Source: Candidatus Omnitrophota bacterium (GTDB taxonomy: Bacteria > Omnitrophota > Gorgyraeia > Aquiviventales > Aquiviventaceae). Taken from it: 64,000 nt of DNA. Below are positions 1 through 55,585 of this stretch, piece after piece (position 1 is the stretch's first letter; every line of letters begins with the position of its first letter). The position numbers were made by a program, and so were the translations under genes. The notes under the pieces were generated by a model. That model searched no databases. It was not told the origin of the DNA and saw nothing but the letters and a program-made list of their open reading frames with translations. Where the stretch lies: assembly GCA_023247255.1 (NCBI GenBank), contig JAHFGV010000005.1, positions 6,067 through 70,066 of the forward strand. The letters are read 5' to 3'.

Positions 1-75
1 ATGAGACAGCACGGCAGATCGACCCAGCCACCGGCGACTTCATAAACACAGGGCACAGCTACCCTGATACAGAAA

Positions 76-1071
76 ATGCCTGATCTTCGTGTGAAGATTG
101 GTTCCCTGACGTTACCGAATCCGGTCTTGGTTGCGGCAGGGACCTTTGGTTACGGCCTTGAGTTTACCTCAGCCATCCGCTTGGATCATCTCGGTGCGTT
201 GATTACAAAAACCTTAACCGCAACGCCGCGATCGGGTCATTTGCCCCCCCGTCTTGCCGTTACTCCTTCAGGGATGCTTAACTCTGTTGGGCTGCAGAAC
301 ATTGGACTTGAGGCATTTCTTGAGACGAAGCTTCCACAACTGCGCCGGTATTCGGTGGCAGTGATCGTAAGCGTGTTGGGGGAATCGGCCAAGGAGCTGG
401 CAGAGATGGTCGGACGAATCGATCGTGCCGATGGCGTTTCCGGAGTCGAACTGAATATGTCGTGTCCCAACCTCGAAGAGGGACAGGGGACGGGGGGCGG
501 GGGGCAGGGGGGGGATTCCAGCATTCCCCTGCCCCCTGTCTCGCGCCCCTTGCCCCGTCTTATTGCGCAGGATGCTGAGGCGACGGCTGCGATGGTGCAG
601 GCGGCCCGGGCAAAAACCAGCAAACTTTTGATCGCGAAATTGAGTCCCGACGTCACCGATCTAAGGCCCATCGCGCGAGCGGCCGAGCGGGCAGGGGCCG
701 ATGCCTTGAGCGTGGGGAATACTTTCATCGGGATGAGCCTGGATCCAGAAACCCGTCGGTCCCGTCTGGGTTCCCTCACCGGCGGTTTAAGCGGACCCGC
801 GATTCGTCCGCTTTCACTTTATAGGGTGTGGTATACTGCCCCGGTTGTTCGCATTCCGGTAATCGGTGCAGGGGGTATCGTACAGGCCAAGGATGCCGTT
901 GAGTATTTCCTGGCCGGAGCCAAAGCCGTTGCAGTGGGTACCGCAAACTTTGTGCGACCGGATGCCGCCAGGCAAATCGTCCACGGTATCGAGCGCTACA
1001 TGATTCGACACAAACTAAGCGCCATACACGAACTTTATGGAGCCATCGATTTCCATTCCCCATGGCCGTAA
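76..1071 (+). CDS. pyrD: Dihydroorotate dehydrogenase catalytic subunit (class 1 PyrD), with an in-frame Gly/Pro-rich insertion of about 25 aa after the NMSCPN motif
   Basis: ORF translation has typical PyrD motifs (GYGLEF, NMSCPN, KLSPDV, IGAGGI). The insertion GQGTGGGGQGGDSSIPLPPVSRPLPR is encoded by a G-rich/C-rich foldback at nt ~479-560. Confidence 0.85.
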   Translation: MPDLRVKIGSLTLPNPVLVAAGTFGYGLEFTSAIRLDHLGALITKTLTATPRSGHLPPRLAVTPSGMLNSVGLQNIGLEAFLETKLPQLRRYSVAVIVSVLGESAKELAEMVGRIDRADGVSGVELNMSCPNLEEGQGTGGGGQGGDSSIPLPPVSRPLPRLIAQDAEATAAMVQAARAKTSKLLIAKLSPDVTDLRPIARAAERAGADALSVGNTFIGMSLDPETRRSRLGSLTGGLSGPAIRPLSLYRVWYTAPVVRIPVIGAGGIVQAKDAVEYFLAGAKAVAVGTANFVRPDAARQIVHGIERYMIRHKLSAIHELYGAIDFHSPWP

Positions 1072-2719: not shown

Positions 2720-3247
2720 ATGCCTCACGAGTCGATCATCCGAGCCACGGTCGGCGTACTCTTAAGCGGCCTGATCCTCACGGCCGCCTTTTGGGTCGTG
2801 GCGTTACGGAATCTTTTTCGCGCCACCCTCAGCTTAGGGCTTGTCTTGGTCGGGGTGGCTTGTGTCTTTCTTTTGCTTGAAGCGGAGTTCTTGGCATTTG
2901 TTCAGATTTTGGTCTATGTGGGTGCGATTCTGACTTTGGTTGTGTTCGCCGTCATGTTAACGGCTCGTCTGCACATCAGCCCCGCCACACGGGTGACTCA
3001 CCGCCAAGATTCCTGGCTCGCGGGTGCGGCAGCCCTAGCCCTGTTTGGATTATTGGTCTGGGCCACGCAATCGTTGACATTTCCCCAGCGCTTGGCCGTG
3101 GAGTCGGTCCGGTTAACCGCTGTGGGCCAGCAATTCATTACGACTCTGATTTTACCCTTTGAGGCGATCTCCCTGATTTTTGTGGCGGCCATGGTAGGTG
3201 CCATTGCTTTGGTGACTCGTCAATTCCCGCCGTCGGCTGAGCCCTAA
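2720..3247 (+). CDS. nuoJ: NADH-quinone oxidoreductase subunit J
   Basis: RBS aagagg 8 nt upstream of the ATG at 2720. Motif FVQILVYVGAILTLVVFAVML. Confidence 0.8.
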   Translation: MPHESIIRATVGVLLSGLILTAAFWVVALRNLFRATLSLGLVLVGVACVFLLLEAEFLAFVQILVYVGAILTLVVFAVMLTARLHISPATRVTHRQDSWLAGAAALALFGLLVWATQSLTFPQRLAVESVRLTAVGQQFITTLILPFEAISLIFVAAMVGAIALVTRQFPPSAEP

Positions 3248-3287
3248 CAGGTTACAGGAAAATGCCCTGTTTGCTCAAAGCTAACAA

Positions 3288-3550
3288 TGGGGGGAACGGG
3301 GTGGGAGACGTGGGGCGTGGGAGAACAGATTACAAGAGATAAAAAGTCCTACAACCGGTTTTAAAAAAGGGTTCTTCTGGTTTTGCAGTGGGTAAAAGGA
3401 GCAACACTTCCCTCTCCCAAAGGGAGAGGGAGAAGGGCATGCCCATATATCCCGGAAGCGCCTAAAAAAGAACGGGCGATGTCTAGCTTTCAAGATTTAT
3501 GGAGTGCTATTCGCACTTCCCTCGCCCCCCGCCCCGTTCCCTTTACCCCG
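3288..3550. repeat. G-rich / C-rich inverted-repeat element (MITE/REP-like) with an internal perfect 9-bp hairpin, splitting nuoJ from nuoK
   Basis: Arm ggggaacggggtgggagacgtggggcgtgggag (3291-3323) versus arm ccctcgccccccgccccgttccc (3519-3541). Hairpin ccctctccc-aaa-gggagaggg at 3411-3431. Confidence 0.55.
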
Positions 3551-3603
3551 GATGCGGGTTTTTCAGCAGTCTGCTGATAGCAAGGATATTGAAACGTAAA
3601 CTC

Positions 3604-3903: not shown

Positions 3904-5816
3904 AGATGCTTTTGTGGATTCCAGGCCTGCCTTTGTTGGCCGCTGCGATATTGCTGCTCGTTGGCAGACGCTTGGGACGCTGGAGTTCTCATGTGGCGAT
4001 TGCCGCCATGAGTGGTTCGGCGGCGTTGGTCTTCTTGATAGGGAGCTGGATTCTCGATGGTCATCGGTTAGGGGTGCGCTGGATATGGTTGTCCGCGCAA
4101 AAGCCACAGTGGTCGCTGGGTCTGGCCGTCGACGGATTGAGCTGGATCATGCTCGTTGTCGTTACCCTGATCGGTACGATGATTATGGTCTACTCAGTGG
4201 GCTACATGCACGCAGACGCACGGTTCAGTCGGTTTTTCGCCTACCTGTGTCTTTTCTGTGCTTCCATGCTGGGGTTGGTGATGGCCGATCATTTTTTACT
4301 GCTCTATGGCTGCTGGGAGCTCGTCGGGCTGTGTTCCTATTTATTGATCAGCTTCTGGTTTGAAAAGCCGGCTGCAGCCGCCGCGGGCCGGAAGGCTTTT
4401 ATCACGACTCGCATTGGGGATACGGGGCTGTTGCTGGGCATCTTTCTCTTAGCCCTGACGGTTGGCGATCTTCGTCTTCAGAATCTGGAAGTTATCCGTG
4501 CGCAGTTGAGCGAACGTTCCTGGCTCTTGACTCTGATCAGTACATTGATTTTTGTGGGAGCCATGGGCAAGTCCGCGCAAATTCCTCTTCATGTCTGGCT
4601 GCCGGATGCGATGGAGGGTCCGACTGCCGTATCCGCCCTCATCCATGCAGCGACGATGGTAGCGGCCGGGGTGTATCTTGTGGCGCGCAGTTTTGTTTTG
4701 TTCACCCCGCAGAGCCTCCAGGGGGTGTTGATCGTCGGACTGCTTACCCATCTTTTGGCCGGGACCGTCGCCCTGACGATGACCGACATCAAAAAGGTCC
4801 TGGCCTACTCGACCATCAGCCAGTTGGGGTTGATGATGACGGCCCTGGGTCTTGGGGCGCAGGCGGCGGCGATGTTTCACCTGTTCACTCATGCGTTCTT
4901 CAAGGCACTTTTGTTTTTGGCGGCCGGCAGCGTCATCCATGCTACCCATCAACAGGATCTTTCCCAGCTCGGTGGACTCTTCCGAAAGATGCGCGCGACG
5001 GCGATTTTGTTTCTCATCGGCGTTCTGTCGATGAGCGGTTTTCCCTTTCTGAGCGGATTCTGGAGCAAGGATGCAATCTTGGCGGCTGCGTTACACGATG
5101 TGCCGGCGCTCTTCTGGACGTTACTGGCTGGGGCGGTTTTGACAGCGAGTTATACATTCCGGTTGTTTCTGCGGTGCTTTCACGGCGAGTCGGCAGACGC
5201 AAGAGGGCACACAGCACACAGCGTGCATGAATCGCCGGCTATCATGCTTATACCCATGGCGGTCTTGGCTCTTGGAGCGGTCTTCGCCGGTCTTTTAGGA
5301 TCGCCGTGGCTGCATCAGCCGATCTTTCATCTGCTCGGTTCAAAACGCCTGCATGAAGGGATCGATGTGCCGATTTTGCTTTTGTCGAGCGGCGCTGTGG
5401 CTGTCGGATTCGCTCTGGCGTGGCTTTCGGGTTTCAAACGCCAGCTGCACCTGCCTGAATCCTTGCGTCCGTTGGGTCAATTTTTCTATCGGCTTTCGGT
5501 GAACAAATACTATGTGGATGAGGCTTATGACCGCTGGATCGTTCAGCCGTTTCAAGCAGCGACCCGCCGATTGTCCCAGTTTGATCAGCGCGTCATTGAT
5601 GGCAGCGTCAATGGGGTCGCCGAGTTGGGCTGGAAGCTCGGTCAGGGGAAAGAGCGTTTTGACGCCAAGGTTATCGATCGGCTCGTCAACGGCATTGCCA
5701 GTTCCACGCGCCGGATGGCGATGGGGCTTCGGCTGATTCAAACCGGTGTGATTCAAAACTACCTGCTGGCTGTTGTGGTCTCAGTGGTTGTGTTCGCCTG
5801 GCTGTTGCGTCCATAA
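3900..5816 (+). CDS. nuoL: NADH-quinone oxidoreductase subunit L
   Basis: 638 aa. WLPDAMEGPTAVSALIHAATMVAAGVYL motif. Confidence 0.9.
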   Translation: MKMLLWIPGLPLLAAAILLLVGRRLGRWSSHVAIAAMSGSAALVFLIGSWILDGHRLGVRWIWLSAQKPQWSLGLAVDGLSWIMLVVVTLIGTMIMVYSVGYMHADARFSRFFAYLCLFCASMLGLVMADHFLLLYGCWELVGLCSYLLISFWFEKPAAAAAGRKAFITTRIGDTGLLLGIFLLALTVGDLRLQNLEVIRAQLSERSWLLTLISTLIFVGAMGKSAQIPLHVWLPDAMEGPTAVSALIHAATMVAAGVYLVARSFVLFTPQSLQGVLIVGLLTHLLAGTVALTMTDIKKVLAYSTISQLGLMMTALGLGAQAAAMFHLFTHAFFKALLFLAAGSVIHATHQQDLSQLGGLFRKMRATAILFLIGVLSMSGFPFLSGFWSKDAILAAALHDVPALFWTLLAGAVLTASYTFRLFLRCFHGESADARGHTAHSVHESPAIMLIPMAVLALGAVFAGLLGSPWLHQPIFHLLGSKRLHEGIDVPILLLSSGAVAVGFALAWLSGFKRQLHLPESLRPLGQFFYRLSVNKYYVDEAYDRWIVQPFQAATRRLSQFDQRVIDGSVNGVAELGWKLGQGKERFDAKVIDRLVNGIASSTRRMAMGLRLIQTGVIQNYLLAVVVSVVVFAWLLRP

Positions 5817-9676: not shown

Positions 9677-10073
9677 CGCATTCATTCGACGACTGTGGCG
9701 CTTGGGCAGTACCCTCTTGTTAGTCAGTGGAGGGCTTGCCGGTTCTTTTTACGGTATTCGGGGTGCGCTCGGTGTGCTCTCAGGAGGGTTCTGGAATTTA
9801 ATCAACCTCTGGTGCCTTCAGAATTTGCTCAACGCTTGGTTAGGCACTACGCGCTCTACCCGTCGAGTTGTGGGGTGGATAGTGCTTAAGTTCTTATTCC
9901 TCTATGGGCTCGTAGTGCTCCTGTTGCGCCATCCAGCCATTTCCCTCATGGGGTTTGGTATTGGGTTTACTATTATATTGATCAGCGCCATCGGTATCTT
10001 TGCGGTCCAAGCAAGGGGTTTGATTGTCACTGTTTCCCAAGCAGGTCCCGGTGCAGTCCGTGGCTATCGCTGA
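9669..10073 (+). CDS. atpI: ATP synthase protein I (AtpI-like)
   Basis: 134 aa hydrophobic protein between atpZ-like and atpB. Confidence 0.5.
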   Translation: MGDAFIRRLWRLGSTLLLVSGGLAGSFYGIRGALGVLSGGFWNLINLWCLQNLLNAWLGTTRSTRRVVGWIVLKFLFLYGLVVLLLRHPAISLMGFGIGFTIILISAIGIFAVQARGLIVTVSQAGPGAVRGYR

Positions 10074-11780: not shown

Positions 11781-11885
11781 ATTTTCGATTTTGGGCTGAG
11801 AGAATTTTCGATTGTAGATTTTAGATTGTCGATTGGAAAACACGACAAATCGACAATCGAAAATTGACAATCGACGATTCGTTGG
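11781..11885. repeat. Palindromic AATCGACAATCG repeat cluster (same family as 19266-19350)
   Basis: ttttcgattgtagattttagattgtcgattgg...aaatcgacaatcgaaaattgacaatcgacgattcg. Confidence 0.5.
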
Positions 11886-15715: not shown

Positions 15716-17239
<1,524 letters not shown>

Positions 17240-19139: not shown

Positions 19140-19213
19140 GGGCGGTTAGCTCAGTTGGTTAGAGCGTCTGATTTACATTCAGAAGGTCGGGGGTTCGAGT
19201 CCTCCACCGCCCA
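19140..19213 (+). tRNA. tRNA-Val (anticodon TAC)
   Basis: Manual cloverleaf: acceptor GGGCGGT/ACCGCCC, D arm GCTC-AGTTGGTTA-GAGC, anticodon arm TCTGA-TTTACAT-TCAGA, T arm GGGGG-TTCGAGT-CCTCC. Confidence 0.85.
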
Positions 19214-19265: not shown

Positions 19266-19350
19266 ATCAAGAGAGCCGAGGGAATTGTCGATTGACGATT
19301 GTCGATTTTTGATTGAACGGCCGTCTTCCAATCGACAATCCAAAATCGAC
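19266..19350. repeat. Palindromic AATCGACAATCG repeat cluster (same family as 11781-11885)
   Basis: attgtcgattgacgattgtcgatttttgattg...caatcgacaatccaaaatcgacaatcgaaaatt. Confidence 0.45.
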
Positions 19351-19434
19351 AATCGAAAATTCCCAGGCTGTTTCATGATTCCTTAGGCGAGGCGGATGGC
19401 CGACCGGAACGAGCCGAAGGCGAGTGAAGGCGCC

Positions 19435-21134: not shown

Positions 21135-22136
21135 TTGCACAATTGCCCAATTTGTAGCATCCTATCCTTAACGCAGAGGAGGAACAAAGGCATGCTACGA
21201 TTTGCCAAACTCGTGCACCACCCGAGGAAACTCTACAGAATGACGGGACTTACGCTTGACCAGTTCCAGACGCTGACGAATCGGCTCACCCCGCTGTGGG
21301 AGCAAGCGGAACGGATGTGCCTCTCGCAGCGCAAGCGAAAGCCACGCCATCGGGAAAGAGTACCAAGTACAAGCTCTCCACGATGGCGGACAAACTCCTG
21401 TGCGTGCTCAGCTTCTACCGCTTCTACCTCTACCTTTGAGCTGCTCGGCTATCTCGTCGGCCTGGATGCCAGCAATATCTGTCGGCTAAAGCCTCGGCTC
21501 GAACCGCTCATTGAGCAGGCAGCCGATCCAAGCCTGGGGCTGTCGCTCCGCCGTCGGCTCCCGCCCGGCGTCAAGAGAATCGGCACCTGGGAGGAACTCG
21601 TGGAGCGCTGTCCGGACTTCGCAGACGTGGTCACTGATGCGACCAAGCAGGCACGACTCCGTCCACCGCGACGCACCCAGCGGCGCTGGTACTCCGGCAA
21701 ACGTAAGCGCCACACACTCAAGACGCAGTTGAGCATCACTCGGCAGAGTGGCCGGATCCTCCATATCAGTTCAACCGTCCCGGGCCGTGTCCATGACTAC
21801 GCGCTCTTGAAGCGGACGCGACTGGACGAACGGCTGCCGCCGAAGACGCGCCTCACCCTGGATCGGGGGTATGATGGTGCCATGACGGACTATCCGACTC
21901 CCGCTATCGCGCTGCCCGTCAAGCGTCGAGGCAACCACCAGGTCCTGACGCGCTCGGAGCGGGCATTCAACCGCCTCCAGGCGCGGCAGCGGATCATCGT
22001 GGAGCATGTCCCAAGTTGCGTGAAGAAGTACCAGCTCCTCGCGCAGGTCTACCGCCACCGGATCGCGGACTACAACCACCGCTTTCGCAACATTGCGGCC
22101 TTGACGAACTTCCGCCTAACGCCGACGGTGACGTAA
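21135..22136 (+). mobile_element. IS5-family (DDE) transposase gene. The ORF is open, but an approximately 95-nt internal stretch reads in the ancestral frame only when shifted
   Basis: LTLDQF...LWEQAE...RKRK...YSGKRKRHTLK motifs. The conserved KLSTMADKLLCVLSFYRFYL block appears only in an alternate frame around 21345-21435, then returns to TFELLGYLVG. Confidence 0.7.
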
Positions 22137-23768: not shown

Positions 23769-23842
23769 GGGGGCGTAGCTCAATTGGTTAGAGTGGCGGC
23801 CTGTCGAGCCGTAGGTTGCGGGTTCGAGCCCCGTCGCCCCCG
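23769..23842 (+). tRNA. tRNA-Asp (anticodon GTC)
   Basis: Manual cloverleaf: acceptor GGGGGCG/CGCCCCC, anticodon arm GCGGC-CTGTCGA-GCCGT, T arm GCGGG-TTCGAGC-CCCGT, discriminator G. Confidence 0.85.
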
Positions 23843-25848: not shown

Positions 25849-26925
25849 GTGAACCTCCTCGTTGTGGGACTCAGTCATCGCACCGCGCCGCTCGAATTGC
25901 GCGAGCTGCTGGCGATCCCGTCACGCGAGTTGCCCGACACACTCGGCGATCTTCATACCCAGTTCGGGATCGATGAAGCGGTGATCCTGTCGACCTGCAA
26001 TCGGGTTGAGATCTACGTCATCACACCAGACCCCTCCGCAACCTCCTACGGCCTCATCGACTTCTTGAGTCATCGAAGCCACGTGGCCCCCGAGGCGTTC
26101 CAATCCCGGATGTATTGCCTAACGGGACCTGACGCGGTGAGACAGCTCTTTGGCGTCACTGCAGGGCTGGATTCGATGGTCCTTGGGGAGTCAGAAATCA
26201 CGGCCCAAGTGAAACAAGCCTATCGGGTGGCACAAACCGAAGAGACAACCGGGCTTGTGCTCCATCGCCTCTTCCAGAAAGCCTTGCACACGGCAAAGGT
26301 CATTCGATCCAAGACACGCTTAGGCTTTGGCCAAGCCTCCATCGGATCAATCGTTGTCGCGCTTGCCAGGAAACTCTTCGAAGGGCAACTTCAAAATTGC
26401 GAAGTCTTGCTTTGGGGAGCCGGAAAGGCGGCGGAATCGACTGCACGGTATCTCATCAAGAACGGGGTGGGCCAGTTGTGGATTGTCAACCGCACACCGC
26501 TCAAAGCGCGGGATCTTGCGACGCTTTGCCAAAGCGGCTGGCTCTCGTGGGAGCAGGCGTTGAAGCACCTCGCCCACGTCGATATTGCCATCGTCTGCAC
26601 CCAAGCGCCGCACTACGTCATCGATCAAGGCGACCTCGATGCGGTTGCGGCTCAGCGCGGCAGCCGCCCCCTGTGTCTCGTTGACCTGGCGGTGCCTCGC
26701 AACGTCGAGCCGTCCCTCGCGCGGCATCCCGGTGTGCGCCTCTACAACATCGATGATCTCCAAACCATTACGCAGGCTGCACAATCGCAGCGTGAACAGG
26801 AACGCGAACGCTCTGACGCGCTCATTCAGGAGCAGGTCAACCATTTCTCTCGTTGGTGGATGGCAGTTTCCCACAAGAAGGAGGATGTTCCATGCCGATC
26901 CGTCGAGGCCTTCTCGTCGGTGTGA
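25849..26925 (+). CDS. hemA: Glutamyl-tRNA reductase
   Basis: GLSHRTAPLELRE...STCNRVEIY...ESEITAQVKQAY. GTG start. Shortish C-terminus overlapping the next gene. Confidence 0.85.
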   Translation: MNLLVVGLSHRTAPLELRELLAIPSRELPDTLGDLHTQFGIDEAVILSTCNRVEIYVITPDPSATSYGLIDFLSHRSHVAPEAFQSRMYCLTGPDAVRQLFGVTAGLDSMVLGESEITAQVKQAYRVAQTEETTGLVLHRLFQKALHTAKVIRSKTRLGFGQASIGSIVVALARKLFEGQLQNCEVLLWGAGKAAESTARYLIKNGVGQLWIVNRTPLKARDLATLCQSGWLSWEQALKHLAHVDIAIVCTQAPHYVIDQGDLDAVAAQRGSRPLCLVDLAVPRNVEPSLARHPGVRLYNIDDLQTITQAAQSQREQERERSDALIQEQVNHFSRWWMAVSHKKEDVPCRSVEAFSSV

Positions 26926-28118
26926 GTCTCGTCGCGGCGCTTACGCTCGGAGAATCAGCGTGGGCAACGATCGAGAACCTCAAAAGCTACAAGGCAGCCT
27001 ATCCCGATAAAGATCCCAAGGCCTATTCGTGCAAGGCCTGCCACGAGGGCCTCATCGGGAAGAAAGACAACCTCAACGCCTATGGTCTCACCTTGCAGAA
27101 GTTCAAAGTGGATGCCGGGGCGAAGAAATTGACCGAAGAAGATTTTCGGGCGTTCGAGGCTGCGGATGCTGATGGGGATGGCGCCTCCAATCTTGATGAG
27201 CTGGACGCGGGCACTGATCTGAATGATCCCACGTCCGTGCCGGAGGGCGCTGGGCAAACGCCAGAAAAAAAAGAAGAAAGCCCAGGCACTGAGCAGCAGA
27301 CAAGCCCTCCAGGCGGCGCGTCGCAACTGAATCCAGGGACACTGAAACAGTTGCAGGCCTACCTGGAGGAGCAGATCGTCCCAGACGTTCAAGCGGCGCC
27401 AGAGGAATCGTCAGTGTCTAGGCGGCATGACGACAAAACAGCGTCCAACGCCAAATCCTCCCAACCCGAACAGGCTGAGTACGTGGGGATGGAGACCTGC
27501 GCGATGTGTCATAACAAGCAGCACCAGGAATTTCTCCACTCAACCCATGCCAGGATCGCAATCCCCGGAGAGACCAAGGCGCAAGGTTGTGAGACCTGTC
27601 ATGGGCCCGGCAGTCTGCACGTTGCTGCCGGTGGCGGTCGTGGCGTCGGTGGGATTATCAATCCGAAGAAGGATCCCGGCGCCTGTTTTGCCTGTCACCT
27701 CGACAAGAAAGCGGAATTTCGTTTGCCCCATCACCATCCCGTGATGGAAGGCAAGATGAGTTGTGCGGATTGCCACAATCCCCACGGTGAGGATGTGCGG
27801 CCGTGGTCAGCGACGACGCTGAAGGATATCAATGAGGCCTGCTTTCGGTGCCACAAGGAACAGCGCGGCCCATTCGCCTGGGAACACGAGGCGCTGCGGG
27901 AAGGTTGCACGACCTGTCACAAGGTTCATGGCTCGATTCACGAGAAGATGCTGCTCGTCCGGGACAACAACTTGTGCCTGCGCTGCCATACGCAGACGAA
28001 CTTCCCGACCATTGGCAGGTCCAGCCATGCTGGCCGGCTTCCCCAAGGGACGTGCTTTAGCGCGGGATGCCATACGGCGGTTCACGGATCGAACTTCGAC
28101 GATCACCTCCGCTACTAA
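26892..28118 (+). CDS. Periplasmic multiheme cytochrome c (about 8-9 CxxCH; MtrA/DmsE-like candidate) with an N-terminal acidic DxDxDG-repeat extension
   Basis: RBS aaggagga. Signal peptide. CxxCH x8 plus CFSAGCH. N-terminal region DADGDGASNLDELDAGTDLNDP. Confidence 0.8.
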   Translation: MPIRRGLLVGVSLVAALTLGESAWATIENLKSYKAAYPDKDPKAYSCKACHEGLIGKKDNLNAYGLTLQKFKVDAGAKKLTEEDFRAFEAADADGDGASNLDELDAGTDLNDPTSVPEGAGQTPEKKEESPGTEQQTSPPGGASQLNPGTLKQLQAYLEEQIVPDVQAAPEESSVSRRHDDKTASNAKSSQPEQAEYVGMETCAMCHNKQHQEFLHSTHARIAIPGETKAQGCETCHGPGSLHVAAGGGRGVGGIINPKKDPGACFACHLDKKAEFRLPHHHPVMEGKMSCADCHNPHGEDVRPWSATTLKDINEACFRCHKEQRGPFAWEHEALREGCTTCHKVHGSIHEKMLLVRDNNLCLRCHTQTNFPTIGRSSHAGRLPQGTCFSAGCHTAVHGSNFDDHLRY

Positions 28119-28130
28119 AGGAGACGCCTC

Positions 28131-30191
28131 ATGCGCGCGATGCTTTGTTGGACGTTGGGAGGAATTCTGGGTGTGAGTCTATGGTTACCCTCACGCCTTG
28201 CTGAGGCTGCGGACCCGGAGGTTTCCCTTTCCCTGGAGCCCATCCGTTATGCGTTCGTCAATGGCGACCGGGATAAGTTTAGCGCCCATCATTGGATGAA
28301 AGACAACTACGTCGGAGGCGTGAAGGAGTTTTCCTTCGACTACGCCCTTGCGGATGGAACGCAGCTCTCCGCAGAAAGCCACGCGCTCATTGATCAAAAC
28401 GATTTGGGCGCTGACGTCTCACTTAAGAAAGACTCACTGGGCTTTTTCAATCTCGGCTACTCCGAATTCCGCAAGTATTACGATAAAACCGGTGGTGTGT
28501 ACTATCCGTTTACCACCCTTCGCAGCAACGATACGTTTAAGGACCTTGCTCTGGACATCGGTCACCTCAGCCTTGAAAGCGGGTTGACCCTGGAAGGCTG
28601 GCCTGACCTGACCTTCGAGTACGAGCGCGAATTCAAGGATGGGGCGAAATCGCGCCTGAGCTGGGTCCCAACGAAGGAAGGGACCACCACCCGGAATATC
28701 GGTCCCTCGTGGCAAGATCTTGATGAGGTCGTCGACTCATTTGGCCTCAAAGCCGATCATGAGATCGCAGGATTCACTCTCAAGGGCGAGCAGCGATGGG
28801 AGTTCGTGCGGACCGAAACCTTTCGGGAGGAGAAATTTCTCGCGACAACAGGTGTCGCAGCAGACACCAAGATTCGACGGCAGGACCAAGCCCCGCAAGC
28901 CACCTTGATGACGACGACGTTAGGCGGGGAGCGTTCGTTCTTCGCTGACAAGATATTTACATCGATGGGCTACCATTTCGCCCACATGGATAATCGGGAA
29001 TTCGAGACAATCGTCGAGTCGAACGCGGCTGGAACCGTAACAAACTTTTCGAATCCGAAGCAGATCCGTAATGCGCGCGCCGATAACGACTACGATACCC
29101 ATACCTGGGTAGGGAACTTCATGATCAACCCCTGGAACTGGCTGAGCCTCGGGACCAAACTCAAGGCTGAAGCGATTCACCGGGAGAGCGACTCAAGCTA
29201 TCCGGCGGATGCCTCGCCGAACTCCACGGGCGGCAGCACCCCGAATGGGGCGATCGACTCTCTCGTGGCCAGTCTCAACAAGAACAAGGCCGTTCGCTGG
29301 GGGGAAGGAGTGTCCCTGCGGTTTTTTGGCATCCCACGCACCGCTCTCTACACTGATTTGGAGTTGGAGCAATCGCGAGTAATCTTGGCAGAGGATCGGA
29401 AAGATTTAGTGACGATCCCGAATGTCAACGAGGATTTCAGCCGCTACACTGTCACCAACGTCCGACGAGGGACGTGGACATTGGGCGGCCATGTCGCGCC
29501 GGGGTCGTTCCTCGATCTGACGACGCAGGTCCGGCGACGTGTCAACAACAACGACTACGATGACCAACGGGAAACCGTCGCCTCAGGGACGGCGCTGTCC
29601 GCATTCGTCGATATGCAGAACATCCATACGGATGAGTTCACCACGCGGGCCACGCTGCGGCCCTCTCGGTGGTTTCGCCCCTCGTTCCGGTACCAGTTCC
29701 GTAACGATAAATATGCGACTCGGACGGAAGCGCAGGATACCGTAAAGACGGGTATGCTCTCGAACATCTACACTTTTGACGTAACGGCACAACCGTTGCG
29801 AGACCTCACGACCACCGCCTCCTTCTCGCGTCAGACGGCCGTCACCACCACTCCCGCGGGTTCGGCGTCGTCAGCAAACGTTCCTGGGTTTCGCGCAAAT
29901 GTCAACACGTGGCTTTTCAGCACCGACTACAGCCCAAGGGCGAATGTGAGTATCACCAACGCGCTGCTCTATTCGCGCGCAAGAAACTTCAACGATTTTA
30001 CCGCCAGCGGGATGCCGTTCGGGACCTCGTTTGATCGGCTGGATGTGACCACAGGTCTGAAGTGGGCGCTGACCGAGGATACGTCTGTTGGCACCGAATA
30101 CGCATTCTACTCGTATCTGCCCAATTCGCTGACCGAAGTGGGCGACTACCATGCCCACGTCATCTGGCTCGAGTTGTCGAAGCAGTTTTGA
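28131..30191 (+). CDS. Large outer-membrane beta-barrel protein (candidate MtrB/PioB-type porin partner of the upstream cytochrome)
   Basis: 686 aa. Signal peptide. Alternating amphipathic beta-strand pattern. C-terminal aromatic residue (..LELSKQF). Confidence 0.55.
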   Translation: MRAMLCWTLGGILGVSLWLPSRLAEAADPEVSLSLEPIRYAFVNGDRDKFSAHHWMKDNYVGGVKEFSFDYALADGTQLSAESHALIDQNDLGADVSLKKDSLGFFNLGYSEFRKYYDKTGGVYYPFTTLRSNDTFKDLALDIGHLSLESGLTLEGWPDLTFEYEREFKDGAKSRLSWVPTKEGTTTRNIGPSWQDLDEVVDSFGLKADHEIAGFTLKGEQRWEFVRTETFREEKFLATTGVAADTKIRRQDQAPQATLMTTTLGGERSFFADKIFTSMGYHFAHMDNREFETIVESNAAGTVTNFSNPKQIRNARADNDYDTHTWVGNFMINPWNWLSLGTKLKAEAIHRESDSSYPADASPNSTGGSTPNGAIDSLVASLNKNKAVRWGEGVSLRFFGIPRTALYTDLELEQSRVILAEDRKDLVTIPNVNEDFSRYTVTNVRRGTWTLGGHVAPGSFLDLTTQVRRRVNNNDYDDQRETVASGTALSAFVDMQNIHTDEFTTRATLRPSRWFRPSFRYQFRNDKYATRTEAQDTVKTGMLSNIYTFDVTAQPLRDLTTTASFSRQTAVTTTPAGSASSANVPGFRANVNTWLFSTDYSPRANVSITNALLYSRARNFNDFTASGMPFGTSFDRLDVTTGLKWALTEDTSVGTEYAFYSYLPNSLTEVGDYHAHVIWLELSKQF

Positions 30192-30634
30192 TGTGTCCTC
30201 GTCAGCCCCTCAGTCGCCGGGTTTTCCTGGCGCTTTGCCTCAGGGGTGGTGGGCTTGCCCTGCTTGGGGCTGCGCTCTATCCCATCCTGCGGTATCTCTA
30301 TCCTCCCCGAGGCGTTGAATCCTCCGTCTCCAGCGTTGCGGCGGCGAAGGTGGGGGATCTGGCGACGAATACCGCGAAGATCTTCCGGTTCGGCAGTCGG
30401 CCCGGCCTCCTCATTCGTTCCCCCCAAGGCGAGCTCAAAGCCTTCTCGGCGGTGTGCACCCACCTCAACTGCACCGTTCAGTACGACAGCGACGCGAGCA
30501 TCATCTGGTGCGCCTGCCACAACGGCAAGTATGACTTAAACGGACAGGTCATCTCCGGCCCTCCCCCACGACCACTCGATGCCTACCAGGTGAACGTCCG
30601 CGGAGAAGACATCATCGTCTCCAAGACGTCCTAG
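30191..30634 (+). CDS. Rieske [2Fe-2S] protein with a Tat signal
   Basis: RRVFLAL twin-arginine motif. CTHLNC...CACHNG Rieske boxes. TGATG overlap with the porin stop. Confidence 0.8.
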   Translation: MCPRQPLSRRVFLALCLRGGGLALLGAALYPILRYLYPPRGVESSVSSVAAAKVGDLATNTAKIFRFGSRPGLLIRSPQGELKAFSAVCTHLNCTVQYDSDASIIWCACHNGKYDLNGQVISGPPPRPLDAYQVNVRGEDIIVSKTS

Positions 30635-30638
30635 CCTG

Positions 30639-31709
30639 ATGGGGTACTTCGAGCACCTACGCGCATTCTTGCATGAGCGCTACCGGCTGGGTGGCCTAGT
30701 GGATCTCGCCACGCATAAGACGGTCCCCATCCACCGCCACAGCGTCTGGTACTACTGGGGCGGCATGACGCTCGTGCTCATCGGCATCCAGATCATCAGC
30801 GGTGTGCTGCTGTTGCTGTACTACCGCCCATCAGCCCAGGAAGCCTTCGAGTCGGTTCGCTTCCTCATGACGCGGGTGCAATTCGGGTGGCTGGTGCGCT
30901 CCGTGCACGCGTGGGCGGCGAACCTGGCGATCTTCTGCGCGATGGTGCATCTGGCCAGCGTCTTTTTCCTGAAGGCGTATCGGCCACCCCGTGAACTGAC
31001 CTGGGTGACCGGGGTTGTGTTGTTGTTTCTGCTATTTGGTTTCGGATTTACCGGCTACCTCCTGCCGTGGAATACGCTGGCGTTTTTCGCCACCAAGGTC
31101 GGCACGGAAATCGCGGGGATTGTGCCCGTCGTCGGGCCTGTCGTTCAAATCTTTCTGCGCGGTGGAAGCGACGTTGGGGATGTGACGATCACGCGGTTCT
31201 TTTGGCTTCATGTCGCAATCCTGCCAATCGGCCTGATGACACTCTTAAGCCTTCATCTGCTCATGATCCAGCTCCAGGGCATGAGCAAACCGCCTTGGGT
31301 TAAGAGCAATCGGTCCATGCCGTTCTTTCCGAATTTTTTCCTGCGCGATCTGGTTGCCTGGTCACTCATACTGGGGATAGTGCTGTGTGTGAGCGTGCAC
31401 TGGCCCGCGACGCTCGGCGAAAAGGCCGATCCGTTCGCTCCGACACCCGTGGGCATCCAACCGGAATGGTATTTTCTCTGGATGTTTCAGACGCTCAAGA
31501 TTTTCCCTGGCCACCTGTTTGGTCTCGAGGGTGAGTTAGTCGCGGTGGGATTGACCGGACTGGCGGGTCTTGCGCTGCTACTCGTTCCATGGCTGGATCG
31601 CCCCGCCCGACGGGAGCAATCATCCTGGCTGGTATGGGCTGTTGGCGTGTTGGGCATTGCCTATGTCGTCGGGATGACCGGCTACGCGCTATGGGTGAAA
31701 CCTCACTGA
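30639..31709 (+). CDS. Cytochrome b (b6-type with fused subunit IV-like C-terminus) of a bc-type complex
   Basis: 356 aa. YYWGGMTLVLIGIQIISGVLL, His-containing TM helices. PEWY-like motif (QPEWYFLW). Confidence 0.85.
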   Translation: MGYFEHLRAFLHERYRLGGLVDLATHKTVPIHRHSVWYYWGGMTLVLIGIQIISGVLLLLYYRPSAQEAFESVRFLMTRVQFGWLVRSVHAWAANLAIFCAMVHLASVFFLKAYRPPRELTWVTGVVLLFLLFGFGFTGYLLPWNTLAFFATKVGTEIAGIVPVVGPVVQIFLRGGSDVGDVTITRFFWLHVAILPIGLMTLLSLHLLMIQLQGMSKPPWVKSNRSMPFFPNFFLRDLVAWSLILGIVLCVSVHWPATLGEKADPFAPTPVGIQPEWYFLWMFQTLKIFPGHLFGLEGELVAVGLTGLAGLALLLVPWLDRPARREQSSWLVWAVGVLGIAYVVGMTGYALWVKPH

Positions 31710-32995
31710 TGACAGGGTATCGTCTACGGGTGGCACTCGGACTTCTGCTGTGCCCTGGCTTTGTGTGGTCGGCTGAGAAGCCGAATAGTTGTGTCGAGTG
31801 CCACAAGCAGGTGGAGGGCCAAACGCGAGGGCCGGCCACACTGGCTGCAGAGGACGTGCATTTCCAGCGAGGCTTGTCCTGCGTGGATTGCCATGGCGGC
31901 GATCCAACAGCGATGGATCCTCAAGCCGCGATGGACCCGGCTAAAGGGTTCCTCGGTCGCCCGAGGCGGGAGCAGATTCCCCAGTTTTGCGCCCGGTGCC
32001 ACGCGGATCCGGCCACCATGCGCAAGTACAATCCCAATCTTCCGACTGACCAATACGCGAAGTACCTGACCAGTCAGCACGGGAAGCGCTTCAGTGTTGG
32101 CGATGCCGATGTGCCGGTCTGCATCAGTTGCCACGAGGCGCACGGCATCCGCTCGAAAAAAGACCCAGCCTCGCCGGTCTACCCGACGAACATCCCCGGA
32201 ACCTGCGCGAGCTGCCACAGCGACGCGTCGATCATGGACAAACACGGCTTGCCGGTGAACCAGCACTGGGACTACTCGCAGAGCGTCCACGGCCAGGCGC
32301 TGTTGTTCCGTGGCGATCGTGCGGCTCCCCATTGCGCGAGCTGCCACGGATCGCACGAAGCGGCCAAACCTAGGACGGTCGCAATCGGCAACGTCTGCGC
32401 TCAGTGCCATAGCCTCACGCGCGATCTGTTTGCAAAGAGTCCCCACAAGGCCGCGCATGAAGCCTTAGGGCTTCCGGAGTGCGAGGTCTGCCACGGCAAT
32501 CACCTGATCCGCAAGCCAAGCGACGAGATGCTTGGGACGGGACAAGATGCGGTGTGTGTCAGTTGTCACGAGCCAGGGTCGACCGGCTACGTCACCGCGC
32601 AGCAGATGCGCAGCGCCATCGAGCAACTGAAAACCCACATGGCCAGCGCTGAGGCAGCCGTCAGGCACGCAGCGGAGTTGGGCATGGATGTCGGTGACGC
32701 GGAATTTGAGCTTCGCGAGGCGATGACCCAACTCACGCAAGAGCGCACCTACGTCCACTCTTTCTCCGCCGCAACCATGGAACCCATTGCCGAGGAGGGA
32801 ACTCACCACGCCCTGCGGGCCGAGGGGCAAGCCCGCCAGGCGATCCGTGAGTTTCATTTCCGCCGTCAGGGCTTGTGGGTCACCCTGATCATTCTCGCCC
32901 TCGTGGTTTCTGGACTCCTTCTGAAGATTCGAGACTTGGAGCGATCGGACTCGACAGACAAGATGGACGACACATCCCCTCGCGACTCCTCGTAA
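31709..32995 (+). CDS. Multiheme cytochrome c (about 9 CxxCH) with a C-terminal TM anchor; third subunit of the bc complex
   Basis: ATG overlaps the cyt b stop (TGATG). CVECH, CVDCH, CARCH, CISCH, CASCH x2, CAQCH, CEVCH, CVSCH. C-terminal hydrophobic helix. Confidence 0.8.
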   Translation: MTGYRLRVALGLLLCPGFVWSAEKPNSCVECHKQVEGQTRGPATLAAEDVHFQRGLSCVDCHGGDPTAMDPQAAMDPAKGFLGRPRREQIPQFCARCHADPATMRKYNPNLPTDQYAKYLTSQHGKRFSVGDADVPVCISCHEAHGIRSKKDPASPVYPTNIPGTCASCHSDASIMDKHGLPVNQHWDYSQSVHGQALLFRGDRAAPHCASCHGSHEAAKPRTVAIGNVCAQCHSLTRDLFAKSPHKAAHEALGLPECEVCHGNHLIRKPSDEMLGTGQDAVCVSCHEPGSTGYVTAQQMRSAIEQLKTHMASAEAAVRHAAELGMDVGDAEFELREAMTQLTQERTYVHSFSAATMEPIAEEGTHHALRAEGQARQAIREFHFRRQGLWVTLIILALVVSGLLLKIRDLERSDSTDKMDDTSPRDSS

Positions 32996-33032
32996 AATCT
33001 GCCATTTCCGGCTATGATATCTGCGGAGCATC

Positions 33033-34550
33033 ATGAACCACACATCGATGCCAAAACCCCCCAGCCTCTTGCGCAACCCGCTGAGCTTTTTCGGCCTCGC
33101 CGTCGCCATCACGAGCACGGCGTTTGGCCTGCCCATGATGTTCGTCGACATGTTCAGTCGACGCACGCATCCGTATCTTGCTGTGCTCGTTTATCTCGTG
33201 CTGCCGTTCGTTGCAGCAGGCGGCGTCGGCTTAGTCCTGCTTGGAGCATTGTGGGAACGCCGTCGAAGACGCCGACGGCCTGGCATGGTAGTGCCACCCC
33301 TGCCATCCATCGATCTCAATCGAAGCGCCCACCAGATTGCTGTGGCTGGAGCACTCACAACGTTCATGACTATTGTGGCCATGCTCTCCGTGACCGGCTA
33401 CCGGGCGTACCACTTTACGGAGTCGGTCAAATTCTGCGGCCTGGTCTGTCACCAGGTGATGAAACCGGAGTATACGGCGTATCAGTATTCTCCGCATGCG
33501 CGCGTGGCCTGCACCCAGTGCCATGTCGGGCCTGGTGCAAGCTGGTTCGTGCGCTCAAAGATCACAGGAGCGTATCAGGTTTACGCGGTTACATTCAACA
33601 AGTACCCGCGCCCGATTCCCACACCCGTGAAGAGCCTGCGTCCGGCGCAAGAAACTTGCGAGCAATGCCACTGGCCGGCGAAGTTTTTTGGCGCGCAGCA
33701 GAAAACCTTCACGCACTACATGGCGGATGAGCACAACAGCCCGTGGCAGATTCAGATGCTGCTGAAAATCGGCGGCGGCGATCCGTCGGTTGGCGCTCCT
33801 GCGGGCATTCACTGGCACATGAACATCAAGAACGATATTTATTACATTGCCTCAGATGAGCAGCGGGAAACCATTCCGTGGGTGCGCGTGGTCGAGCCGC
33901 AGGGACGCATCGCCGAATATATGTCGATGGAAAGTCCGCTCTCGCCGGAGCAGATCGTAAAGAGCGAAGTGCGCCGCATGGACTGCGTGGATTGCCACAA
34001 CCGGCCCTCCCACATCTTTCGACCGCCGGATCGTGCGGTGGAGGAGGCCTTCGAGACCGGCCGGCTAGAGCGGTCCCTGCCGTATCTGAAGCGCGAAGCC
34101 ATAAGGTTGTTGGCGCAAGAGTACCCCTCGGAGGAGCAGGCGTTATCAGCCATCCTGAAAGGCTTGGCCGAGTTCTACCAGAAGGACTATCCAGAGGTGT
34201 ATCGCGAACAGGCAGTCGCTATTCAACAGGCCACAGCTGAGTTGCAACGCATCTATTCGAGGAATTTCTTTCCCGAGATGCGCGCCGATTGGCGCGCCCA
34301 TCCCAACCACATGGGCCATCTAAATGCCGAAGGCTGCTTCCGCTGCCACGATGGGCTGCACAAAAACCGCGAGGGCAAGGTGCTAACCAAAGACTGTACC
34401 GCCTGTCACACGATCTTGGCCCAGGGGCCACCTGAGGAGGTGGCGCAAGCCAAGCTTGAAGCGCAGCCGTTTCGCCACCCGGTCGACGTGGGGATGGACG
34501 TGACGGAATTTAAGTGCAGCCAGTGTCATACCGGCACGAGCGGTCTCTAG
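33033..34550 (+). CDS. Membrane-anchored heptaheme cytochrome c of the NapC/NirT/ImcH-like type
   Basis: 505 aa. 2-3 N-terminal TM helices. Seven CxxCH motifs. Size and architecture resemble the Geobacter inner-membrane cytochrome ImcH. Confidence 0.6.
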   Translation: MNHTSMPKPPSLLRNPLSFFGLAVAITSTAFGLPMMFVDMFSRRTHPYLAVLVYLVLPFVAAGGVGLVLLGALWERRRRRRRPGMVVPPLPSIDLNRSAHQIAVAGALTTFMTIVAMLSVTGYRAYHFTESVKFCGLVCHQVMKPEYTAYQYSPHARVACTQCHVGPGASWFVRSKITGAYQVYAVTFNKYPRPIPTPVKSLRPAQETCEQCHWPAKFFGAQQKTFTHYMADEHNSPWQIQMLLKIGGGDPSVGAPAGIHWHMNIKNDIYYIASDEQRETIPWVRVVEPQGRIAEYMSMESPLSPEQIVKSEVRRMDCVDCHNRPSHIFRPPDRAVEEAFETGRLERSLPYLKREAIRLLAQEYPSEEQALSAILKGLAEFYQKDYPEVYREQAVAIQQATAELQRIYSRNFFPEMRADWRAHPNHMGHLNAEGCFRCHDGLHKNREGKVLTKDCTACHTILAQGPPEEVAQAKLEAQPFRHPVDVGMDVTEFKCSQCHTGTSGL

Positions 34551-34627
34551 GCCTGCCCGCCTGTCGTCCAAAAGTGTGATCTGGGTCATAGTTCGTCTCC
34601 CTGCGTTCTGAGAAGATTACTTAGGCG

Positions 34628-36183
34628 ATGGGGGAGGCTCTGACGAGAAACGGCGGACGGATACGGCGCGTAGCGCTCTGCGCGCTCTTCACGTGCTGGA
34701 CCTGGGCGCCGCGGGCCATGGGAGAGGGCAGCGTCTCTCCAGCCGCGCAAGAGATCGACAACGCTGCCTGTCTGGCTTGCCATGGTGATCCCTCGGCAAT
34801 CCGCTTTGTGGACCACGCGAAGTTCGAGGCTTCCGTCCATGGGAGTTTTTCCTGCACTACCTGCCACGCGGATGTCGTCACCATTCCCCATGACGTGCCG
34901 CTGGAGTCGATCAGTCAGTCGCAGATCCCCCTCACGTGCGGCCAGTGCCATGAAGACATCAAGGCTGCCTACCAGCGGAGTATCCACGCTCAGGCGGTCG
35001 CCGCCGGCAAGCGCCATGCGCCCGTCTGCACCGACTGCCATGGTGAGCACTATGTGGCCCCGGTGAAAACGGAGGCGTCGAAAGTGTTTCCCTCGCACAT
35101 CCCGCAGACGTGCGCACAGTGCCACGCGGCGGAGCGCATCGTTACGAAGTATCGGTTGCCGGCGTACGTGGTCGATACGTACATGAGCAGCTTCCACGGC
35201 CTCATACACCAACTGGGATCCGTGACGGCCGCGAACTGCGCCTCCTGCCACGGGGCGCATGACATTCTCCCCGCGAACGACGAGCGTTCCTCGGTCAATC
35301 CGAAGAACCTGCCGAAAACCTGTGGCTCCTGCCATCCGGGCGTCGGCGCGTTCGTCGCACAGGGAAAGATTCACTCCGGCACACAGCCCGGAGCGGAACA
35401 TCCTGCGGTGACATTCGTTCGCCGGTTCTACCTCATCCTCATCGGTTTGGTCATTGGGGGCATGCTGATTCACAACGGTCTCGATTTCCGCAAAAAACTC
35501 TCGATCCATTACCAACGGATGGCCGCCAGCAGCGCGGTACAACGGATGAGTCTTAATGAGCGCCTTCAACATGGCGTGCTCTTGATCGCCTTTGCGACGC
35601 TCGCCTATACCGGATTTGCGTTAAAGTTCCCGCATGTCTGGTGGGCACGCCCCTTCATGGGCCGCGTCGACTGGCGCCGCCTGGGGCATCGGGGAGCGGC
35701 GGTCGTCTTCTGCCTGCTCGCCGGCTACCACCTCTGGTTCATGACGTGCACGAAACGGGGGCGGAGCGAGTTGCGCGCCTTGCGACCCGAACGAGCCGAC
35801 TTCACGCACCTGAGACGGATGCTCGGCTTCTATCTGGGTAGGAGCCGGGAGCAGCCGCGCGCGGCGCGGTACAGCTACGTGGAGAAAGCGGAGTATTGGG
35901 CGCGGTCTGGGGTTCAGTCATCATGGTGCTCACCGGCGGTCTGATGACCTGGCAGAATTGGACATTGCGCTTCCTGCCCAAGTGGGCGTTCGATGTTTTT
36001 ATCACGGTGCATTTTTATGAAGCACTCCTCGCATGCTTGGCGATCCTTATTTGGCACCTCTACTTCGTCATGTACGATCCCGATGAATACCCGATGAAGT
36101 GGACGTGGATCAGCGGCAAGGCCTCACCCACCGACGAGGCACATCGGCATCCAGGCGACGCCGAGGAAGGCAATCCAGGCTGA
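34628..36183 (+). CDS. Multiheme cytochrome c (7 CxxCH) fused to a diheme b-type membrane cytochrome domain (CbcL-like); apparent +/-1 frameshift near 35895-35945
   Basis: ORF 34628..35944 continues as ORF 35896..36183 in another frame. The C-terminal half has 4 TM helices with conserved His (formate dehydrogenase-gamma / Ni-Fe hydrogenase cyt b-like). Confidence 0.6.
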
Positions 36184-45365: not shown

Positions 45366-45366
45366 C

Positions 45367-49521: not shown

Positions 49522-49541
49522 CGAGATGAGGCGTGTGAGCG

Positions 49542-55584: not shown

Positions 55585-55585
55585 G

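Follow-up and report, generated by a model that had tools for sequence, protein, structure and literature searches.

Tandem heptanucleotide arrays forming an in-frame hairpin within pyrD of a Candidatus Omnitrophota bacterium

Two groups of described repeats come closest to the element reported here. Rickettsia palindromic elements (RPEs; Ogata et al. 2000, 2002) insert in frame into open reading frames (ORFs), as summarised in PMC10969869, and in-frame fusions with host ORFs are likewise known for MITEs (PMC10969869). Heptameric repeats form the second group, which includes the cyanobacterial STRR sequences and the repeats GGGAATC of Xanthomonas, GGGGA(C/T)T of Nostoc and TAACTGA of the Beggiatoaceae (PMC4692102, PMC4679880); those of Xanthomonas and Nostoc show a preference for four units (PMC4692102). 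No long simple repeats are more over-represented in bacteria than heptamers (PMC4692102; PMC4679880, summarising Mrazek 2007), and units not divisible by three are expected to be rare in genes (PMC4692102, PMC4679880). The present analysis concerns a 64,000-nucleotide (nt) stretch of a Candidatus Omnitrophota genome (assembly GCA_023247255.1, contig JAHFGV010000005.1; hereafter the window, numbered from its first letter). Within it, a hairpin built of two inverted heptamer arrays lies in frame inside pyrD, the gene for dihydroorotate dehydrogenase.

The arms of this hairpin have a period of seven and no other, and the pyrD frame reads through them. Orthologous genes carry different repeat families at the same site, the occupants are replaced faster than their flanks, and families are shared between sites and genomes. 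The pyrD insert is best explained, with somewhat better than even confidence, as a copy of a lineage-wide, fast-turnover, non-autonomous hairpin repeat that is tolerated and translated in a disordered loop and rewritten by DNA-level processes.

The gene occupies positions 76-1071 on the plus strand and encodes the catalytic subunit, 331 residues long, of a class-1B-type enzyme, identified from its ORF, NCBIfam and a match in the Protein Data Bank (PDB). The protein scores 321.9 bits against NCBIfam NF005574, the PRK07259 equivalog (cutoff 269), and so belongs to that family; against TIGR01037 it reaches 267.9 bits, just below the cutoff of 270, in a match cut in two by the insert. Among PDB entries it matches L. 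lactis PyrDB, 1ep1_A, best (E = 2.8e-66), and HMMER breaks the matches to both PRK07259 and 1ep1_A into two parts. Gene order around pyrD is carB-PilZ-pyrD-pyrF-pyrE-nuoJKLMN-atp. A PilZ-domain gene lies directly upstream of pyrD in all syntenic loci (L001, L083-L085), and this class-1B-type pyrD has no adjacent pyrK, either in the window (1-1071) or in the same loci.

The insert follows directly on the catalytic-cysteine motif N127-M-S-C130-P-N132, whose codons lie at 454-471 on the plus strand, as alignment A1 and 1ep1_A agree; its placement at the NMSCPN loop by the original prediction, which was made from the sequence, is therefore correct. In A1, an alignment of 44 sequences, N127, S129, C130, P131 and N132 are invariant and stand opposite NISCPN of 1ep1_A. 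An AlphaFold model run with A1 renders the barrel confidently (predicted template modelling score, pTM, 0.82), with alternating strand and helix elements, and gives residues 133-155 a per-residue confidence (pLDDT) below 50 and no secondary structure. The insert peptide is predicted to be disordered, and the model places it in an apparently permissive loop between strand beta-4, which bears the catalytic Cys, and the next helix. Because the catalytic residues are all invariant, the enzyme appears to be under selection and the loop not.

The ORF stays open across the segment (translated ...NMSCPNLEEGQGTGGGGQGGDSSIPLPPVSRPLPRLIAQD...), and the DNA at 478-561 is as had been described, a G/C-rich foldback at 479-560 through which ORF 76-1071 reads in frame. 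Alignments with 1ep1_A and with orthologues delimit a hypervariable segment of 30 codons between SCPN and IAQD (472-561, plus strand), translated LEEGQGTGGGGQGGDSSIPLPPVSRPLPRL. The corresponding SCPN-(V/I)AQD segment has 8 codons in empty-site orthologues, which leaves ~22 extra codons, or ~66 nt, in the window copy and bears out an insertion relative to other PyrD proteins. Residues 138-163 lie opposite only residues 143-145 of L. lactis 1ep1_A.

Five degenerate units make up each arm, a tandem heptanucleotide build that the original prediction overlooked. The 5′ G-rich arm, recognised in the sequence and by a period scan, comprises GGGACAG, GGGACGG, GGGGCGG, GGGGCAG and GGGGGGG (480-514, plus strand). 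It is followed by a 10-nt hairpin loop, ATTCCAGCAT (515-524, plus strand, from the folds), and by the 3′ C-rich arm of TCCCCTG, CCCCCTG, TCTCGCG, CCCCTTG and CCCCGTC (525-559, plus strand, from a repeat search and folds). The C arm is an imperfect complement of the G arm and holds a variant unit whose reverse complement is GAGACAG; an inverted-repeat search returns 31-nt arms at 480-510 and 526-556, 77% complementary and 15 nt apart. At a threshold of 18 of 21 matches the pyrD G arm is the sole period-7 array of the window, against one array at period 10 and none at periods 4-6, 8, 9, 11 or 12.

In a sliding-window fold, the lowest folding energy in all 64 kb belongs to the 100-nt interval 461-560, at -66.9 kcal/mol (mean -30.2, sd 6.6). 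As RNA, the 93-nt insert segment folds at -64.7 kcal/mol; with DNA parameters, segment 472-564 reaches -28.4 kcal/mol (z = -3.1), and none of 200 dinucleotide shuffles does as well. A G-quadruplex (G4) motif (G3+N1-7 x4, by regular expression) matches at 480-514, so that the potential for a hairpin or a G4, as originally proposed, is present on both counts. Only five clusters of G4 motifs occur on the plus strand of the 64 kb, two of them within elements of the G-rich family. G4 formation at 480-514 should be read as motif-level potential, which would compete with the -64 kcal/mol hairpin. No Rfam family matches the pyrD hairpin at its gathering score; hits are confined to miRNA-precursor models below that threshold and betray no more than a generic GC-rich hairpin.

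Orthologues keep the position of this segment and not its sequence; the case named at the outset as refuting an insertion, a segment whose sequence is conserved in orthologous PyrD proteins, does not hold in that form. The homologue set consisted of the 120 best PyrD matches, 60-89% identical, whose named members are Candidatus Omnitrophota or Omnitrophica metagenome-assembled genomes (MAGs); the insert-bearing orthologues are probably from Omnitrophota MAGs. A hypervariable segment of 8 to ~52 residues lies exactly at the insert position, with at least 20 residues in 91 of the 120 close homologues, short remnants in 17 and an essentially empty site in 12. The insertion is not a one-off, as most close homologues have this codon position filled. 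Empty sites, such as VQRASALMV, span 8-9 residues, as does VKHGGQAF of L. lactis, and the orthologues that have them keep all catalytic residues. Among the matches listed, distant PyrD proteins of other phyla (Bacteroidales and others) are ~300 residues long and have no insert; their loci were used as outgroups and as a control for period 7.

Where the site is filled, certain peptides recur: SRLEAGGSR...LEPRALSLQP, AECGVRSAE...FRIPHSEFRIP, IADCGLRIA...SAIRNPQSA and GQGTGDGGRG...PRPTPRAPRP. These types are what a heptamer array and its complement yield when read in three frames. Two PyrD proteins that are 89% identical, P0001 and P0002, differ in their inserts, and the heptamer of P0002, the closest relative, would be AGACAAG, judged solely from the 7-residue periodicity of its peptide RQETRDKRQ. 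In a neighbour-joining tree of PyrD, which is star-like, the insert types are scattered.

At the DNA level, the pyrD site holds (GGCTCAA)n/(CCTTCAG)n in L084, (TTGCGGA)4/(ATCCGCA)4 in L085 and a G-rich pair in L083, and the inserts of these three syntenic loci fold strongly (-44 to -58 kcal/mol). A metagenome scan blind to reading frame, based on a codon pattern for YRVWYTA specific to the clade, recovered 37 further loci with both pyrD halves. The N- and C-terminal halves share a frame in 36 of them, and those 36 are stop-free. The exception, L153 (insert 3223-3314), has a 1-nt deletion inside the array relative to L194 that shifts the C-terminal half into another frame and introduces a stop, which points either to a pseudogene or to an error in sequencing the repeat.

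Twenty distinct occupied sites of at least 57 nt (the window copy and 19 from other loci) were compared with shuffled sequences. Thirteen reach z <= -2, nine beat all 200 shuffles and four fold no better than their shuffles. Two of the occupants depart from the heptamer plan: that of L131 is a perfect 22-bp hairpin, non-repetitive and free of heptamer periodicity, and the arms of L157 have an 8-nt period. Heptamers are thus not strictly required for a hairpin at the pyrD site.

The rate at which occupants change is best seen between close relatives. L085 and L154, aligned over ~10 kb, are 96.6% identical outside 11 low-identity blocks, most of which are hairpin or heptamer sites. Their pyrD occupants are (TTGCGGA)4/(ATCCGCA)4 and (GGCGAGT)4/(CACTCAT)4, respectively, and different heptamers likewise fill their carB sites. 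The pyrF N-terminus shows a clean 72-nt presence/absence, the sole clean filled/empty case; no target-site duplication flanks this insert, which is a copy in a sister genome and not the window's own. The arrays in the nuoK-nuoL spacer differ between the two loci by substitutions, each of which has spread to most units of its array. Occupants of pyrD also differ between L099 and L167 (93-95% identical), and L153 and L194, whose flanks are 100% identical over 240 nt, show several changes within the hairpin.

Families recur within and across genomes. The 11-mers of pyrD inserts recur at 3.1 per 100 kb in their own locus and 0.47 in other loci, a 6.7-fold difference. In L084, GGCTCAA arrays occupy carB, pyrD and the pyrD/pyrF junction; G-rich copies occur in the window also at 3.3 kb and 15.7 kb. 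Families cross genomes as well, since L085 and L194 have (ATTGCGG)4 in pyrD and L154 has it in an intergenic spacer. Swapped occupants and recurring 11-mers together indicate that the elements turn over far faster than their flanks and that sequence information moves between sites.

A different kind of insertion was noted in the same pair of genomes. The PilZ-pyrD spacer of L085 (~9783-9984) holds a ~170-nt indel missing from its 96.6%-identical relative L154 (~4622-4656); it has the inverted terminal repeats TCCCACGCCC...GGGCGTGGGA and a TAG in duplicate. In appearance it matches a classical MITE-like insertion and differs from the heptamer hairpins.

Paired arrays are also in frame in other pyrimidine genes. 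They lie in the interdomain linker of CarA (...PY[DE]WP | insert | VVMD[FY]GVKYN) in L084, L085 and L101, in a linker of CarB (YSTYE.P | insert | K.MILGGGPNRIG) in L083, L084 and L085, and at the N-terminus of PyrF in L084, L085 and L120. The heptamers of the carA, carB and pyrF inserts vary by genome. Long stop-free frames at arrays in L112, L154, L157 and L158 were left uncounted as likely spurious antisense frames in GC-rich DNA.

Such arrays are dense in the clade. Forty clade loci totalling 353 kb hold 62 period-7 arrays (17.6 per 100 kb), against 0-3 at each other period from 4 to 12; distant Omnitrophota loci hold 10 in 121 kb (8.3 per 100 kb), and other phyla 19 in 1.16 Mb (1.6 per 100 kb). 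Period 7 is the commonest in other phyla too, in agreement with the published heptamer excess (PMC4692102; PMC4679880). Exact period-7 arrays in the 40 clade loci have a sharp length peak at 30-31 nt, or ~4 units, and none exceeds 34 nt. Array pairs from the window and loci L083-L171 also have a consistent polarity: in 27 of 28 inverted pairs, intergenic ones included, the G-richer arm is the 5′ arm (p = 2e-7, with sites that are not all independent). Because a palindrome has the same polarity on both strands, G-first order belongs to the element itself and does not reflect how it is oriented to transcription.

In the window itself, at least five further paired inverted heptamer arrays were found, all intergenic, and a period scan at 17 of 21 matches yields seven arrays at period 7 against 0-1 at each other period from 4 to 12. 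The pyrE-nuoJ spacer holds a pair of the GTCATGN family at 2463-2619, with (GTGTCAT)n at 2463-2496 and (CATGACA)n at 2580-2619. A composite element of the G-rich family fills the nuoJ-nuoK spacer at 3285-3552 (G arm 3285-3328, C arm 3506-3552), where the syntenic loci L083-L085 have no spacer. Its arms pair across ~180 nt in which inner hairpins lie, one of them CTTCCCTCTCCCAAAGGGAGAGGGAG at 3409-3440, and as RNA it folds at -118.9 kcal/mol (z = -3.75); the inner hairpins suggest elements nested in the loop of an older hairpin. A hairpin of the TCGATTG family lies in the atpF-atpH spacer (11802-11879; DNA fold z = -6.1), and one of the TTGTCGA/CAATCGA family at 19279-19362 (intergenic; DNA fold z = -5.1), 66 nt downstream of the tRNA gene 19140-19213. 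Upstream of atpD, at 15727-15804, a G-rich arm, a T7 spacer and a C-rich arm form a weak hairpin of the G-rich family.

Between them, the three elements with G-rich arms (pyrD, 3285-3552 and 15727-15804) have six arms, which align in a 7-nt register with the consensus (GGGGCNN)n and have the variant unit GAGACAG in common, which makes the three one family; G-rich arms of the window, L083 and L120 also align in register, all with a GAGACAG unit. The proposed kinship of the pyrD foldback with intergenic copies therefore holds for the sequences of the arms, and less well for the hairpin, since the 15727-15804 copy folds no more strongly than its shuffles (z -0.2 and -0.7).

If the pyrD insert is a tolerated copy of a fast-turnover hairpin repeat, each copy of the element pairs two tandem arrays in inverted order, with about four 7-nt units apiece. 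It would be transcribed and then translated as a low-complexity, Gly/Pro-rich peptide of 22 residues, with selection only keeping the frame open and stop-free while the peptide rides along. Occupancy of the site would be kept, and its contents rewritten, by DNA-level processes acting at hairpins. The palindrome might, for example, break or undergo slippage and then be recopied from an element elsewhere, through gene conversion or re-insertion, and units would be homogenised within arrays; alternatively, some dedicated activity may be at work. The window's own copy is probably a passenger.

Several observations weigh against this account. Occupancy of the pyrD site is ~76% despite rapid replacement and persists across PyrD proteins only 60-70% identical, which fits a hotspot and equally fits selection to retain something there. 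Pfam searches covering ~40 of the 56 window ORFs that reach 110 residues found no Y1_Tnp/RAYT transposase and no reverse transcriptase, so that no transposase, RAYT or reverse transcriptase able to move the elements came to light in that set; together with the missing target-site duplication, this means that we infer mobility and do not observe it. Loci were taken from around one operon and the PyrD tree is star-like, so that a single ancient insertion and repeated insertion both fit the data. Neither the ~4-unit arm length nor the G-first polarity is explained by simple slippage or neutral decay. Finally, the carA linker of L085 (1341-1423) holds adjacent perfect (GTCAGCC)4 and (AAATCGA)4 arrays that are mutually non-complementary, and this pair and the L131 hairpin make hairpin and heptamer array separable.

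A DDE_Tnp_4 transposase ORF is present in the window at 21135-22136, with no evident link to the hairpin elements. It lies between the tRNA genes 19140-19213 and 23769-23842 and may mark a small integrated element.

A bolder view, which we put forward tentatively, is that these repeats constitute an undescribed class of self-renewing hairpin elements: two inverted arrays of about four heptamers, always with the G-rich strand 5′, that would home to existing hairpin sites, some of them in the loops and linkers of essential enzymes. Renewal might proceed by templated or structure-directed writing, such as snap-back synthesis after repeat addition to the G strand, or hairpin-targeted gene conversion. 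If true, short stretches of Omnitrophota proteins would be under constant rewriting, and the mechanism could account for the bacterial excess of four-unit heptamer repeats.

The main rival to a tolerated, DNA-level passenger is a hairpin that selection maintains as a cis-acting structure, either of the long pyr-nuo-atp transcript or of the DNA; we regard this as unlikely. The hairpin might serve as a 3′ exonuclease barrier, as a site for RNase III or other processing, as a translational pause between the barrel halves or as the binding site of a lineage-specific protein that reads 7-nt repeats, and coding copies would be functionally equivalent to intergenic ones. Such a role would account for a hairpin kept at one position through full sequence turnover, including the perfect 22-bp hairpin of L131, and for a site filled in 91 of 120 homologues. 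Like elements occupy spacers of the same operons as well as carA, carB and pyrF, the fixed four-unit arms and polarity resemble constraints, and REP elements are believed to stabilise mRNA (PMC3733652). The folds themselves point the other way. In 19 pyrD inserts the antisense strand is the more stable in 12, G:U pairs number 77 against 34 (sense), and the commonest periodic arm mismatch is 5′A:3′C on the sense strand; with no sense-strand preference, the folds of the 19 inserts were rejected as evidence of selection on mRNA structure. Moreover, the site is empty in 12 of 120 orthologues and holds only short remnants in 17, four of 20 occupied sites fold no better than shuffles, and some array pairs are wholly non-complementary. 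Intergenic copies show no positional conservation between syntenic loci, and the pyrF insert is cleanly present or absent between near-identical genomes.

Avoidance of stop codons was considered as a cause of the periodic arm mismatches and rejected as a full explanation: repairs in frame yield 4 stops, against 5 and 5 in off-frame controls. At unit level a stop would arise from 14 of 42 mismatch repairs, and in L084 alone both possible repairs are forbidden, each creating TGA. This cause explains the periodic mismatches in part at most.

That the peptide is an adaptive protein feature, a flexible active-site lid or a partner contact to which the palindromy of the DNA is incidental, is improbable. 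The insert adjoins the catalytic loop, most orthologues have a long loop at the site, and the insert peptides are all hydrophilic, with an abundance of Gly, Pro, Ser, Arg, Gln and Glu. Yet the peptides of orthologues are unrelated, and their composition follows from three-frame heptamer translation; P0001 and P0002 differ at 89% identity, empty-site orthologues keep their catalytic residues, the same DNA families are intergenic and the loop is predicted to be disordered. The original description of the element as domesticated into a protein loop lacks support for kindred reasons, the peptides being unrelated between orthologues, absent in ~10-25% of them, swapped between 96.6%-identical genomes and predicted to be disordered.

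Phase variation is a poorer explanation still. In such a contingency locus, gain or loss of 7-nt units would switch pyrD off and on, and the G4 run could also modulate expression. A single-unit change would shift the frame because heptamers are not multiples of three, L153 has a frameshift and stop inside its array, a G4 motif is present, and heptanucleotide repeats drive phase variation in some pathogens (PMC8262952). The change in L153 is, however, a 1-nt deletion and not a unit change; arrays have ~4 units with no long tail, the three assemblies of the window genome are identical, and the affected genes (pyrD, carA, carB, pyrF) are core biosynthetic genes with 36 of 37 pyrD copies in frame.

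Ribosome bypassing is known from the GC-rich hairpin 'byp' elements of yeast mitochondria and from T4 gene 60. We give very little credence to the idea that the segment here goes untranslated, by ribosome bypass or by removal from the mRNA. A very stable hairpin (-64.7 kcal/mol as RNA) in the coding sequence of essential genes would suit it, yet bypass or excision would relax the constraints on frame and stops, and 36 of 37 loci are in frame and stop-free, as are the carA, carB and pyrF inserts.

An assembly or sequencing artefact in the G-run region can be set aside almost entirely: G/C homopolymer-like runs are error-prone, and the two other assemblies that match the window with 0 mismatches (11,071 nt of an ENA k141 contig and 2,117 nt of Logan SRR14366787) may come from the same sample or reads, which excludes assembler-specific error and not read-level error, but all three assemblies agree, the insert is in frame, and dozens of independent metagenomes and MAGs have homologous hairpin inserts at that very codon position.

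The remainder of the window has features of its own. A molybdenum cofactor (Moco) riboswitch at 53228-53385 scores 61.6 bits against a gathering score of 36 and lies upstream of moaA-moaC-mog-moeA-mobB-moaE (53889-59872). Segments 26853-35944 and 43767-51867 encode several multihaem c-type cytochromes and one cytochrome b, together with a Nar/Nxr-like cluster: an EB_dh/cytochrome c subunit, a 1207-residue molybdopterin oxidoreductase, a 4Fe-4S subunit and a NarJ-like chaperone. To judge from gene content, the cytochromes and the Nar/Nxr-like cluster point to an unusual respiratory repertoire for a probable Omnitrophota genome.

Heptanucleotide repeats, which have no accepted explanation and are thought to shun coding sequence, are found here in frame in core biosynthetic enzymes. 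Filled, empty and replaced alleles form a natural series on which the origin and dynamics of heptamer repeats can be tested. Omnitrophota also become the second lineage, following Rickettsia, whose proteins regularly take in palindromic repeats. Caution is called for in annotating and aligning Omnitrophota proteins, as their low-complexity loops stem from DNA repeats and not from protein evolution. A literature search in a limited library found no account of in-frame paired heptamer arrays, nor of such elements in Omnitrophota.

Among the classes to which the element might be assigned, REP/REPIN and MITEs share its outward form. Like REP sequences and REPINs (PMC3116915, PMC3733652), it comprises two inverted short repeats and a spacer in a hairpin of ~80-100 nt that is dispersed, non-autonomous and evolving within the genome. 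REP units, in contrast, are imperfect palindromes of 20-40 nt with a GTAG or CGTC tag and are extragenic (PMC3733652), whereas the pyrD arms are, by eye, direct heptamer arrays and not self-palindromes. The heptamer families have no GTAG- or CGTC-tagged unit in common as judged by eye and with no formal tag search; CGTC occurs once, at 555-558. The pyrD copy is, moreover, intragenic, and the ~40 window ORFs searched (of 56) include no RAYT gene. With MITEs the element has in common that it is small, dispersed, hairpin-capable and non-coding in origin; it differs in being inverted repeat throughout, with no unique core, no evident parent insertion sequence and no target-site duplication at the pyrF site. 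Of the original label, REP/MITE-like, what survives is a hairpin of two inverted repeats; a common tag was not found by eye, nor a target-site duplication at the pyrF site, nor a RAYT among the ~40 ORFs searched. The heptamer arms put the element nearer to STRR-like heptameric repeats than to classical REP or MITE sequences.

STRR-type repeats resemble the pyrD element in their tandem 7-nt units, about four to an array, in that some are G-rich and G4-capable, in the inverted stem-loop pairs that some form and in their genome- or lineage-specific families. Their published copies are mostly intergenic and under-represented in coding regions (PMC4692102, PMC4679880), whereas here paired arrays lie in frame in conserved enzymes, at conserved loop and linker positions. 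The unit and the preference for about four of them thus agree with STRR-like repeats, and the location does not. RPEs supply the complementary likeness, as short, non-autonomous palindromic repeats that stand in frame in unrelated housekeeping genes, are translated, occupy fold-compatible sites and are also intergenic. RPEs are elements of Alphaproteobacteria, ~100-150 bp long, with a family-conserved peptide and no tandem heptamer build (PMC10969869); the pyrD-type elements have ~66-110 nt, two arrays of ~4x7 nt, many families and rapid replacement at one site. The resemblance to RPEs is functional only, and by this description the length, repeat structure and phylum set the element apart and make membership unlikely. 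On the best reading, the pyrD insert is not a domesticated loop; it resembles the in-frame palindromes of Rickettsia joined with heptamer repeats of the cyanobacterial type.

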